Made by a program: the position numbers and the translations under genes. This document shows, in pieces, positions 20,534 to 23,371 of a stretch of 24,566 bases of DNA. A model generated the notes under the pieces. The model worked only from the letters and a program-made list of their open reading frames with translations, had not been told where the DNA came from and ran no database searches. Each line of letters opens with the position of its first letter. Positions within the stretch are counted from its first letter, which is position 1. Origin of the DNA: Candidatus Hermodarchaeota archaeon (lineage in GTDB: Archaea > Asgardarchaeota > Hermodarchaeia > Hermodarchaeales > Hermodarchaeaceae); contig JAEOUH010000046.1 in the NCBI GenBank assembly GCA_016839365.1, positions 1 through 24,566 on the forward strand, in the 5' to 3' direction.

Positions 20534-20866
20534 CTATGCAACCTCCGTCCTTACACGACGTTTTCGTCGTATCGCGTTCAACGCGAAGAGTATGAGGATG
20601 ACTCCGACAGCAATAGCAACAATTGGGCCGATAACAAACCAAATGGGGATTTGGTAGACTAATGCTAATCCTAGAACGACAATGACGATGCCGAACAGGA
20701 TTCCAAAGATGGCGCCTCCACCGGTAACACCGAAGCACTCTTCTTCAGCTCGCGTACCGACACGCTCCCTCCAGTGACGTTTTAAGGGAGCTAAAGGAGT
20801 ACCGCACTTTTTGCAGAAGTCTGCCTCATCGGCGTTTTCGGTACCGCATTTCTGGCAATACACCAC
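20534..20866 (-). CDS. Zinc-ribbon (CxxC...CxxCG) protein with 2 TM helices (copy 1)
   Basis: YCQKCGTENADEADFCKKCG, EEECFGVTGGGAIFG, two TM helices and a basic tail. Likely start is GTG 20866 after GAGGTG. Confidence 0.87.
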   Translation of the reverse strand: MVYCQKCGTENADEADFCKKCGTPLAPLKRHWRERVGTRAEEECFGVTGGGAIFGILFGIVIVVLGLALVYQIPIWFVIGPIVAIAVGVILILFALNAIRRKRRVRTEVA

Positions 20867-20951
20867 GAGAAACACCTCACCCAGCAGTAGCAACCTTAAA
20901 CTTCTTAAGACTTTGGGGAACCCGCAATCTCTCTAAAAACGAAAAACCTGT

Positions 20952-20971
20952 GAAAGAGAAGTTTTTATTAA
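20952..20971 (+). promoter_or_regulatory. Putative BRE-TATA promoter for the intergenic RNA
   Basis: Purine-rich GAAAGAGAA followed by TTTTTATTAA, about 25 nt upstream of GGGGACC at 20996. Confidence 0.55.
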
Positions 20972-20995
20972 CCTAACCACTAGGACTAAATTGTT

Positions 20996-21131
20996 GGGGA
21001 CCGGAACAAAAATTCGGACCGGGGTGGCAAATATTCAGGCACCACTTACTCCCCTAGAAACCATTCCCTCTCCCCTCCAATTGTGTCCTTTTTGTGGGGC
21101 CTGGATTGCCATTACCCCGGTCTTCCCTTTT
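20996..21131 (+). ncRNA. Candidate structured small ncRNA of unknown family
   Basis: 21017-21045 pairs with 21094-21122 (25 bp, two 3-nt bulges, one mismatch, and a G-U pair that favours the + strand). 48-nt C/U-rich loop, upstream TATA, downstream TTCCCTTTT. Confidence 0.6.
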
Positions 21132-21212
21132 CCTTAGCATAGCGGTTGGACCAAAGGGTTTTATTTTCTGATTTGGGATAGCGGATGCACGATTCGTAGG
21201 GTTTGTGTTGTT

Positions 21213-22631
21213 GTGAGAATCCTGTTTGTTGAGCCTCCTAAGAAGCCATGGTTTGTGATGGGCGAATATTTGCCACCACCTTTGGGATTACTATGTTTAG
21301 CAGCTTACGTGGAAGCGAACCTACCTGGTGTTGAGATCCAAGTGATGGATTGTCAGGCAGAGCAAGCAGGGTGGGAGGAGGTCGAGCATCGGATTCGGGA
21401 GTATGGTCCAGATATTATAGCTCCCAGTACGGTGTCGACGTGTAATGCCAATATTGTCCTTCGCGTGGCAAGTCTTGCGAAGAAGGTGGATGAAGATATT
21501 GTGACGATTGCAGGGGGTCAGCATTTTTCGGTACTGGCTCAGACAGTGTTAGAGACATACCCCCAACTGGATTTCATTGTTCGAGGTGAAGGGGAGCAAA
21601 CCCTGTTCGAACTTGTGCGCGTAATAGATACCAGTAGAAGTTTTCAGGGGATTGATGGGATCTCTTTTCGGAAGAAGGGTCAGGTGATCCATACGCCAAA
21701 CCGGTCGATGATTCAGAATTTAGATAGCCTCCCATTTCCAGGATATCATTTTGTCCGAGAGCATATGGAGAAGTATCGGTTTCCAGCAGGCAAGGATTTG
21801 CCTTATGCGTTGGTGGAAGGGAGTCGGGGGTGTGCGCATGCGTGTTCGTTTTGTGGGCAGTGGCGATATTGGGGACGCTGTCGGCGTAAATCCCCTGAAC
21901 GAGTGGCAGATGAGTTCGAGTATTTGTATCGAGAGTTTGGGAGTCGGTTTCTGTGGCTAGTTGATGATTTCATTCAATTGGATGAGTGGATGGCTAGACT
22001 GTGTGATGAGCTGATTGATCGGGGAATTACTGAAGAGTTGATGTGGTTCTTTCAGACTCGTGCTGATGAGATCATTTCAGGGAAGGAGCTGCTTCCGAAG
22101 CTTCGAAAGACCGGGCTCAAATGGATTATGACAGGATTAGAGAGCCACAATGAGGAGGTACTTGTGCAGTATCACAAAGGCATTGATGTGGCCATGGGGA
22201 AGAACGCCATCGACCTATTACGGGAAAATGACATCCTCTCGCAGACAACGGCAATTATTGGACACCGTCAAGAATCATACGAATCGATTGAGATGTTTCG
22301 AGAGTGGATTGATGAAGTGGACCCGGATATCGCGGTGTTCATGACAATGACGCCATTTCCCGGGACTCCGTTGTATGAGGAGGCGCTGAAGAATGGGTGG
22401 ATGGCGGATCCGCGTTGGAGTCAATTTGATATGGTTCATGCTATTATGCCCACTGAGCATTTGACTCGGGAACAGGTGCAAAAGGAGCTTTACGCCACGT
22501 ACCGCAACTTCTACGGTTGGCGACGGCGGATTGGTGGGACATTATCGATTAATGAAGTAAAGCGTGCTTACTACCGGCACATGATGTGGAAAGGGTTTCT
22601 AGGCACGTTGAAGGGACTCAAACGATTATGA
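21213..22631 (+). CDS. Cobalamin-binding radical SAM protein (class B / BchE-like)
   Basis: B12-binding domain (PPLGLLCLAAY, GGQH, VRGEGE), SRGCAHACSFC, GLES and TPFPGTPLY. TTTTATTTT at 21159-21167 is a possible separate promoter. Confidence 0.92.
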   Translation: MRILFVEPPKKPWFVMGEYLPPPLGLLCLAAYVEANLPGVEIQVMDCQAEQAGWEEVEHRIREYGPDIIAPSTVSTCNANIVLRVASLAKKVDEDIVTIAGGQHFSVLAQTVLETYPQLDFIVRGEGEQTLFELVRVIDTSRSFQGIDGISFRKKGQVIHTPNRSMIQNLDSLPFPGYHFVREHMEKYRFPAGKDLPYALVEGSRGCAHACSFCGQWRYWGRCRRKSPERVADEFEYLYREFGSRFLWLVDDFIQLDEWMARLCDELIDRGITEELMWFFQTRADEIISGKELLPKLRKTGLKWIMTGLESHNEEVLVQYHKGIDVAMGKNAIDLLRENDILSQTTAIIGHRQESYESIEMFREWIDEVDPDIAVFMTMTPFPGTPLYEEALKNGWMADPRWSQFDMVHAIMPTEHLTREQVQKELYATYRNFYGWRRRIGGTLSINEVKRAYYRHMMWKGFLGTLKGLKRL

Positions 22632-23371
22632 CGGCACGTAGACAAGGGTCAAGTTATACGCTTATCTCTCTGGCGTTATCCTTAGTAGGATTAGGCTTGC
22701 TGCCATTTTTAGTGTTGACAGCGACTCCATCCCTCGGTATTCCTTGGCAAAATCAGCTTATTGGCATCAGCTTTGCTGTTATCTGTATACTGGGTATCAT
22801 TGCGGGAGTTTCACCGTCACACTGCTCATGTCGTTCGAAAGCGAAGGAACCTCCAGTAGTAAAAACAGCGAGTAGAGAGCTGTCCAAAGATTCTACTATT
22901 CAGATACGAAAAGAAGGACATCATCCCACATGCGACCAGTATCACGGTCATGTCCTACAAATTCGTAATCGTGTCTTATGTGCTGGATGCACAGGATTGG
23001 TTACAGGCGCTGTGCTTGCATTAATTGGCACTATTTTATTTTTCTTCATGAATTTTCGGTTCATATTGCCCGATATTGTTTTCGGTATTGGGTTTGTGCT
23101 GGTGACATTAGGGTTAATTCAACACTCAGTTTATCGTTTGGTATCGGTAGAGCGTGGAGAGGTTCGGATTCTAGTGAATGTATTATTCGTCTTTGGGGCA
23201 TTCCTGCTCCTCGCTAGTGTCGTGCAATTGACCAATAGCCTCGTTGTTAGCGGATACCTGCTAATTCTCACTCTCTATTGGATATTCACACGGATAGTCA
23301 TGTCTCGTTCGTCGCATCAACGCATATGTAGACGATGCAAGGTGGCAGATTGCCCTTTGTCAGATGGCTAG
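22628..23371 (+). CDS. Cys/His-rich multi-pass membrane protein
   Basis: ATG 22628 overlaps the radical SAM stop (ATGA). About 6 TM helices. Motifs SHCSC, GHHPTC..YHGH, LCAGCTG and HQRICRRC..DC. Confidence 0.82.
   Translation: MTARRQGSSYTLISLALSLVGLGLLPFLVLTATPSLGIPWQNQLIGISFAVICILGIIAGVSPSHCSCRSKAKEPPVVKTASRELSKDSTIQIRKEGHHPTCDQYHGHVLQIRNRVLCAGCTGLVTGAVLALIGTILFFFMNFRFILPDIVFGIGFVLVTLGLIQHSVYRLVSVERGEVRILVNVLFVFGAFLLLASVVQLTNSLVVSGYLLILTLYWIFTRIVMSRSSHQRICRRCKVADCPLSDG

Follow-up and report, generated by a model that had tools for sequence, protein, structure and literature searches.

Stand-alone RNA genes with a canonical bulge-helix-bulge motif in Hermodarchaeia, a candidate source of small circular RNAs

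The window analyzed here is a stretch of 24,566 nucleotides from a Candidatus Hermodarchaeota archaeon, and at 20996-21135, on the plus strand only, it holds a long stem that closes a large loop. A sequence-only reading of this DNA had proposed an unannotated, stand-alone structured RNA on the plus strand with a promoter-like box of its own, and our analysis supports this. All of the helices quoted in that reading are present (P1, GGCA(A) 21026-21029(30) with (U)UGCC 21107-21110, UUCAGGC with GCCUGGA, and CCAC with GUGG), and so is the 48-nt loop with two copies of CTCCCCT (21049-21055 and 21070-21076) and one CCTCC (21074-21078). The BRE/TATA-like element placed about 25 nt before the GGGG was found as well. 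The features of the locus are listed below; type A, to which the copy in the window belongs, is one of four paralog types, and BHB stands for bulge-helix-bulge.

20963-20972, plus strand: TATA-like box TTTTTATTAA, read from the sequence, with a purine-rich, BRE-like stretch before it; about 24 nt separate the end of the box from the GGGG at 20996
20996-21000, plus strand: GGGGA, which in type A makes up the 5′ strand of the outermost closing helix, partner UUCCC at 21123-21127
21001-21017, plus strand: P0, a putative small 5′ hairpin (CCGGA ... UUCGG), type A only
21017-21025, plus strand: 5′ strand of P1, GACCGGGGU, the outer helix h of the BHB on the "exon" side, partner 21114-21122
21026-21029, plus strand: 5′ strand of the central 4-bp helix H, GGCA, partner UGCC at 21107-21110
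21030-21032, plus strand: 5′ bulge AAU, 3 nt, with the predicted 5′ cut after A21031
21033-21045, plus strand: 5′ strand of the inner helix h′ (P3), AUUCAGGC-A-CCAC, partner 21094-21106
21046-21093, plus strand: 48-nt pyrimidine-rich loop, with its invariant core at 21058-21093
21094-21106, plus strand: 3′ strand of the inner helix h′ (P3), GUGG-G-GCCUGGAU, partner 21033-21045
21107-21110, plus strand: 3′ strand of the central helix H, UGCC, partner GGCA at 21026-21029
21111-21113, plus strand: 3′ bulge AUU, 3 nt, with the predicted 3′ cut after U21112
21114-21122, plus strand: 3′ strand of P1, ACCCCGGUC, partner 21017-21025
21123-21135, plus strand: pyrimidine tail UUCCCUUUUCCUU, read as the 3′ strand of the closing helix and a likely oligo-U terminator
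21032-21112, plus strand: predicted excised and circularized product of 81 nt, from the BHB geometry, with its circular fold computed

Downstream, at 21213-23371, lies a gene for a B12-binding radical SAM protein (Pfam B12-binding and Radical_SAM), which has its own box, AAAGGGTTTTATTTT, at 21154-21168; the linkage of this gene with the type A copy is conserved across species.

When the plus strand was folded with RNAfold, the stem appeared in both the minimum free energy and the centroid structure, at -51.9 kcal/mol; the z-score of -2.56 (4 of 200 shuffles as good) is only moderate for a single sequence, and it is comparison that establishes the structure. The minus strand of the element folded no better than shuffles (z = +0.26). 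We take the structure to be real because, in a MAFFT alignment that was not fitted to it, 89.1% of the cells pair, versus 34 to 51% when the partners are slid, and 19 of the 24 stem pairs have changed on both sides. None of 500 shuffles reached the observed covariation score, and G-U cells in the stem outnumber A-C cells (134 versus 48). The comparison with relatives that had been suggested as a check thus yielded both homologues and strong compensatory changes. Changes on both sides were seen for all nine pairs of P1, the most variable part of the molecule, with a mean column identity of 0.55 versus 0.76 to 0.85 for the columns between the bulges, on the side of the proposed ring. The sequence beside the bulges (GGCGAAAGAU and UAAUCCGCCA) is conserved beyond what pairing needs.

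Some elements at the periphery are less firmly drawn. In most type A orthologues, GGGGA ... UCCCC appears to enclose the element, as judged by comparing the sequences rather than by a formal count, and P0 varies among orthologues as CCGG/CCGG, CGGG/CCCG, and CCUGG/CCGG. Within the loop, AGAAA at 21056-21060 might pair with UUUUU at 21089-21093 to form a further helix, P4; this tentative pairing costs 3 kcal/mol in the window. About 60% of the 71 family members have a run of at least four T's in the 40 nt that follow. Runs of five or six T's also occur within the genes of types A and B; these could act as an archaeal termination signal and count against reading the gene as the source of a ring.

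The sequence-only reading had not noticed that the RNA belongs to a multi-copy paralogous family. With a covariance model made from 44 copies, we find four stand-alone genes in the organism's own genome (G000), as follows.

C18 (the window), plus strand: type A copy
C45:54971-55105, minus strand: type B copy
C45:82887-82994, minus strand: type C copy
C89:3982-4092, plus strand: type D copy

Each of the 18 further Hermodarchaeia genomes searched with the same model has one to five copies. In seven genomes, types B and C share a contig, 25 to 37 kb from each other, and the copies are therefore syntenic paralogs, not mobile repeats. Each paralog has its own TATA-like box, and TTTAAATA-like boxes precede the start of the model at a fixed distance, 35 nt for type B and 67 to 68 nt for type C. 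The metabolic neighbors are unrelated from copy to copy; around the four genes they include a zinc-ribbon membrane protein, the B12-radical SAM protein, a MOFRL-family protein, a CoA-ligase-like protein, an H+-pyrophosphatase, and an acyl-CoA dehydrogenase. These neighborhoods gave no functional link, nor is any candidate partner gene linked to any copy. A 36-nt core of the loop, AAACCAUUCCCUCUCCCCUCCAAUUGUGUCCUUUUU, is 100% identical between type A and type B copies in both genera, at two to four loci per genome in 18 of 18 genomes of the same family. In some type B copies, the loop contains an additional hairpin.

Beyond Hermodarchaeia, BLAST of 42 genomes from other Asgard families gave no matches. 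The model, a different instrument, finds a single-copy relative in four of four genomes of a second Asgard family (f14 in the tool's numbering), and the range of the RNA family extends to it. This relative has an upstream box, AAAGATTTATA, a loop containing CCCUCUCCCCUCAAAUUG, and a perfect hBHBh′ motif (GGUG-AGA-GGCUCGA / UCGAGCC-CACC-AAA); its substitutions are non-periodic and indels are present. The hexamer CCUCUC is invariant across all paralog types and the f14 relative. There, a 5′ U-run pairs with a 3′ A-run, reversed relative to the AGAAAA ... UUUUU of the Hermodarchaeia, which hints at a further helix P4 under a terminal loop of about 27 nt.

Other matches fared less well. Those in a further family, f9 (33 of 61 genomes by BLAST), fall in a protein-coding gene on the opposite strand with 3-nt periodic variation. 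This coding gene (L205-L229; opposite strand, KDWKGEVLVLHEG) resembles the C-rich loop closely enough to score 22 bits with the RNA model, and it serves as a warning about weak covariance-model matches. A match in G034 lies inside a long open frame, and those in G143, G117, G131, G072, and G048 have poor structure. In a third Asgard family, G066 (L201, G066:C123:3097-3194) offers a BHB-like fold with the bulged helix ACCG-AAA / CGGU-AAC and a loop with CCUCUCCCCCCUAAU. It is a singleton, absent from the genus's two other genomes, and an open frame passes through it; we list it as a candidate only.

The sequence-only reading could match the RNA to no known class, and our searches agree. Rfam, applied to the window (20850-21260) and the paralogs at the gathering cutoff and at E values up to 10, returned no relevant family, only a chance lncRNA match of 18.8 bits. 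ARAGORN found no tRNA or tmRNA in the window, and 20996-21135 contains no C box (RUGAUGA), D box (CUGA), ACA box with a pseudouridylation pocket, or cloverleaf. The core sequence turned up in no paper that we found, nor did any description of such an RNA in Asgard archaea. We are highly confident that this is a real RNA gene family that had not been described.

The most telling feature of the molecule is the arrangement of its bulges. The 5′ strand runs from P1 through a 4-nt helix strand and a 3-nt bulge into the inner helix; the 3′ strand runs from the inner helix through a 4-nt strand and a 3-nt bulge back into P1. This is a canonical archaeal BHB motif, hBHBh′, which the splicing endonuclease of archaea recognizes (definition after bioRxiv 10.64898/2026.10.13.758758). 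In the window, the flanking helices are 9 to 10 bp outside and 8 bp inside, where at least 2 bp are needed for one. The sequence-only reading had correctly described 3-nt bulges on opposite strands. It had drawn the helix between them as the 5-bp GGCAA/TTGCC that RNAfold prints; that register (-38.9 kcal/mol) is equalled in stability by a 4-bp GGCA:UGCC (-39.1 kcal/mol), and most paralogs allow the 4-bp register only. What that reading missed is that these bulges form a canonical BHB, which points to excision and circularization.

Across the family, 63 of the 71 distinct members have a canonical BHB at the homologous site (31 hBHBh′, 18 HBh′, and 14 hBH), 5 have a relaxed form with three central pairs out of four, and 3 have none of these, in a census whose alignment was fitted to the model structure and is thus biased towards it. 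The site was fixed by homology; an unanchored search for BHB shapes easily yields spurious ones. All four central pairs form in 63 of the 71, the helix is always 4 bp, and it is built from six compensatory sets of pairs (GGCG:CGCC, AGCG:CGCU, GGCA:UGCC, GGUG:CACC, AACG:CGUU, and CGCG:CGCG). Among the 69 members that bear the module, the 5′ bulge is 3 nt long and begins with A in all, and the 3′ bulge is 3 nt long in 65 and begins with A in 67. This geometry is held while the lengths of P1, P3, and the loop vary. Half motifs also occur, with the 18 type B-like members having the inner half only, in strict register, and type C the outer half only. Two of the three members without a canonical or relaxed motif, the genus-2 copies L025 (G017:C185:8699-8800) and L172 (G016:C18:8979-9079), carry the invariant loop in a plain long stem without the BHB module, so that a linear hairpin may be another form in which the loop acts.

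Both enzymes that such processing would call for are encoded in the organism's own genome: two EndA paralogs (PF01974, 105 and 70 bits) and one RtcB (PF01139, 568 bits). The EndA genes are located at C43:37410-37664 and C19:55223-55483. EndA reads the geometry of the BHB and has no sequence requirement. Of the 25 tRNAs called by ARAGORN in this genome, 12 bear introns (on C7, C15, C19, C20, C41, C43, C54, C83, and C85). Several of these introns are at noncanonical positions, and one call has an intron of 287 nt. The RtcB gene (C19:38833-40143) adjoins an intron-bearing tRNA-Ser (C19:38023-38134). Elsewhere in Hermodarchaeia, 16S genes are interrupted (L185, G005:C71:619-4212; G003:C88; G015:C142; G017:C32); one of them stretches the SSU model of 1478 positions over 3.6 kb, and the others match in separate pieces. 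Their sequences suggest large rRNA introns, which would be further EndA substrates. The intron of the genome's own tRNA-Ala has a strand order identical to that of the RNA described here, and ARAGORN places its boundary after the second bulge nucleotide; the cut positions that we predict are taken from these boundaries.

We consider the following course of events the most likely. A long rod would be transcribed, consisting of the outer helix P1, the BHB, the inner helix P3, and the large, near-invariant pyrimidine-rich loop. EndA would cut within both bulges, and RtcB would close the inner piece of about 81 nt (21032-21112) to a ring, with U21112 joined to U21032 at the predicted junction GGAUUGCCAU/UAUUCAGGCAC. 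RtcB would also join the flanks, A21031 to U21113 (GGGGUGGCAA/UACCCCGGUC), leaving a small hairpin as a by-product. As computed, the 81-nt ring folds into a 12-bp stem between a 7-nt junction loop and the 48-nt loop. The ring would then be the functional product, a stable dumbbell displaying the invariant loop, with its core CCAUUCCCUCUCCCCUCCAAUUGUGUCC, as a binding surface, for which a protein seems a likelier partner than a short antisense pairing. The invariance of 36 nt, including positions that are not C-rich, would fit a surface read lengthwise by a protein or RNP better than it fits a short seed. We lean, with modest confidence, towards the view that EndA and RtcB process this RNA into a circular RNA of about 81 nt released from a dedicated gene.

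Metagenome contigs were also scanned for traces of a ring; the scan gave 48 contigs, all at least 1.1 kb, and the family members among them all stood in linear gene order. Both reading frames of the 81-nt ring are endlessly open, and a search of these for words shared with proteins gave no candidates; a full HMMER search with one of the open frames found only translated CRISPR arrays. We assign no function to the family. Observed are the gene, its strand and structure, the family itself, the geometry of the BHB, and the genes for the enzymes; cutting, ring closure, and the role of the loop are predictions.

How else might the locus be explained? The sequence-only reading had favored pairing with GGAGG ribosome-binding sites. 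In that case, the RNA would be a linear, trans-acting sRNA of the RsaE kind, with the C-rich loop (CUCCCCU and CCUCC) pairing with GGAGG-type sites or other G-rich targets and the bulges merely structural. The unpaired loop does hold several motifs resembling an anti-SD sequence (the 16S 3′ end of a relative reads GGAUCACCUCCU), the two family members without a BHB would suit a linear RNA, and four genomic sites, on C5, C39, and C44 (two), carry perfect loop complements of 14 to 15 nt, ACACAATTGGAGGG(G) or ACACAAUUGGAGGG. At the C5 site (minus strand, plus coordinate about 21361), ACACAATTGGAGGG is a 14-nt complement that covers a GGAGGG lying 7 nt ahead of the start codon (ATG) of a small ORF, MAKSYKHKKLEN..., and this is the only long complement located on a ribosome-binding site. 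On C44 (minus strand, around plus coordinate 16249), ACAATTGGAGGGGATTCTACTTCTCCCCTAAC is followed by a T run; there, a hairpin, GGAGGGGA/UCUCCCCU, has a 5′ arm that is a 14-nt perfect complement of the loop, and a terminator, a further sRNA, or a target are all conceivable. No common context links the four long complements, however, and the 312 10-mer complements fall within the range for shuffled loops (176 to 364). Over 2659 start windows (-35 to +12), from crude gene calls and with no conserved target among them, the duplexes (mean, -11.8 kcal/mol; 5th percentile, -20.2) barely differed from those of the reversed loop (-11.3 and -19.5) or of internal windows (-9.9 and -18.1). The loop against the 16S of the relative G016 likewise gave no signal (-41.0 kcal/mol versus a shuffled mean of -39.2); no rRNA was found in the organism's own assembly. 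A stretch of 36 invariant nt that takes in AAUUGUGU and GAAACCAUU goes beyond the needs of a seed, and the exact 3-4-3 geometry is left unexplained; we regard a linear sRNA as unlikely. Slightly less probable still, to our minds, is a linear RNP scaffold, in which the bulged helix and the loop bind one or more proteins and the likeness to a BHB is either due to chance or there for binding and not for cleavage. The conserved geometry of the bulges might just as well mark a site where a protein binds, and the overconserved sequence by the bulges, the A with which both bulges nearly always begin, and the invariance of the loop over its full length would all suit such a scaffold. Set against this, EndA needs no particular sequence for such a geometry, the organism splices many introns, GA pairs of a k-turn were not seen on reading the sequence, and a linked partner gene is missing from all paralogs.

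Two further explanations can be given far less weight. One is that the element acts in cis, as a 5′ leader or a BHB intron of the downstream B12-radical SAM operon, since every type A copy precedes a B12-binding radical SAM gene on the same strand and the tail is only a weak T run. That gene keeps a conserved AAAGG-TTAAAT box of its own between the RNA and its start, as the sequence-only reading had remarked, and paralogs B, C, and D lie between unrelated genes that are convergent or on the opposite strand. With a separate promoter box for the operon and only type A upstream of it, a leader function is unlikely, and we judge the cis explanation as a whole to be very improbable. The other is that the RNA is a Y RNA-like partner of Ro60 (TROVE), an analogy drawn in the earlier reading from the paired ends, bulged stem, and pyrimidine-rich loop, or else that this multi-copy inverted repeat is a MITE or some other repeat. 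No TROVE gene was found in the organism's own genome or in 18 relatives (0 of 19 Hermodarchaeia genomes, 72 to 91% complete), and control genomes were positive; the blank Rfam search at E values up to 10 had included the Y RNA models. A MITE would be expected to show many dispersed copies, nearly identical and bounded by inverted repeats and target-site duplications, and what we see instead are one to five syntenic copies per genome, with four in the organism's own, arms that differ by compensatory changes with a G-U bias, and no match to the family in the viral contigs searched. As far as the tools used allow, the Y RNA and MITE readings are refuted, and we give them hardly any credence. Processing into a ring remains the explanation that we prefer.

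To our knowledge, the RNA biology of Asgard archaea is almost unexplored. What would be new here is a BHB-dependent circular RNA, as predicted, from dedicated stand-alone genes. As a broader and more tentative proposal, to which we give somewhat less than even credence, Asgard archaea (at least Hermodarchaeia and the second family) may have dedicated multi-copy genes whose sole product is a BHB-excised ring of about 80 to 105 nt with the invariant CU-rich loop, the core of a lineage-specific RNP or regulator. If this is true, a gene family seemingly devoted to ring production alone would put the splicing machinery to a new use, the ring would represent a new class of abundant noncoding RNA in Asgard archaea, and a natural, stand-alone "circRNA gene" would exist in the prokaryotes most closely related to eukaryotes. 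Should the ring be real, its partner, whether protein or RNA, becomes an accessible question.

That leaves the comparison with known systems. Y RNAs bound by Ro60, including the bacterial YrlA, share with this RNA an end-paired stem that is bulged on either strand, a large loop rich in pyrimidines, and a U-rich tail; unlike them, the family described here comes without TROVE (19 genomes), without an Rfam match, and without sequence similarity. The RsaE/RoxS-type sRNAs of Firmicutes also expose unpaired C-rich motifs complementary to GGAGG or GGGG; here, in contrast, the RNA is archaeal, has no Rfam match and no excess of complementarity to start sites, and holds 36 nt invariant, against a motif of 4 to 6 nt.

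The closest likeness is to the BHB introns of archaea. In tRNA and rRNA introns and in the processing stems of rRNA, EndA cuts and RtcB circularizes, and a C/D box sRNA resides, for example, in the tRNA-Trp intron of Haloferax volcanii. The hBHBh′ with its 4-bp helix, a 3-nt bulge 3′ of each helix strand, and flanking helices is the same, the enzymes are encoded, and the excised piece, predicted in our case, is a stable ring bearing conserved sequence. The host, however, is not a tRNA, an rRNA, or an mRNA; the flanks form a hairpin only, and the gene seems made for the ring. The ring would also differ in lacking C/D or H/ACA boxes and in belonging to a paralogous family of 3 to 5 copies.

Circular RNAs made by the splicing machinery of archaea are familiar as intermediates or side products in the maturation of tRNA and rRNA, and among the circular or permuted RNAs made through a BHB are the permuted SRP RNA of Thermoproteus, circular pre-rRNAs, and circular 23S rRNA. 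In these and in engineered tRNA-intron circRNA cassettes, the endonuclease and ligase are used outside tRNA splicing, as we predict here, and the layout of the gene resembles the engineered cassette in which a ring lies between two BHB arms. Those, however, are known housekeeping RNAs or artificial constructs, whereas this is a new RNA, found so far in two Asgard families only.
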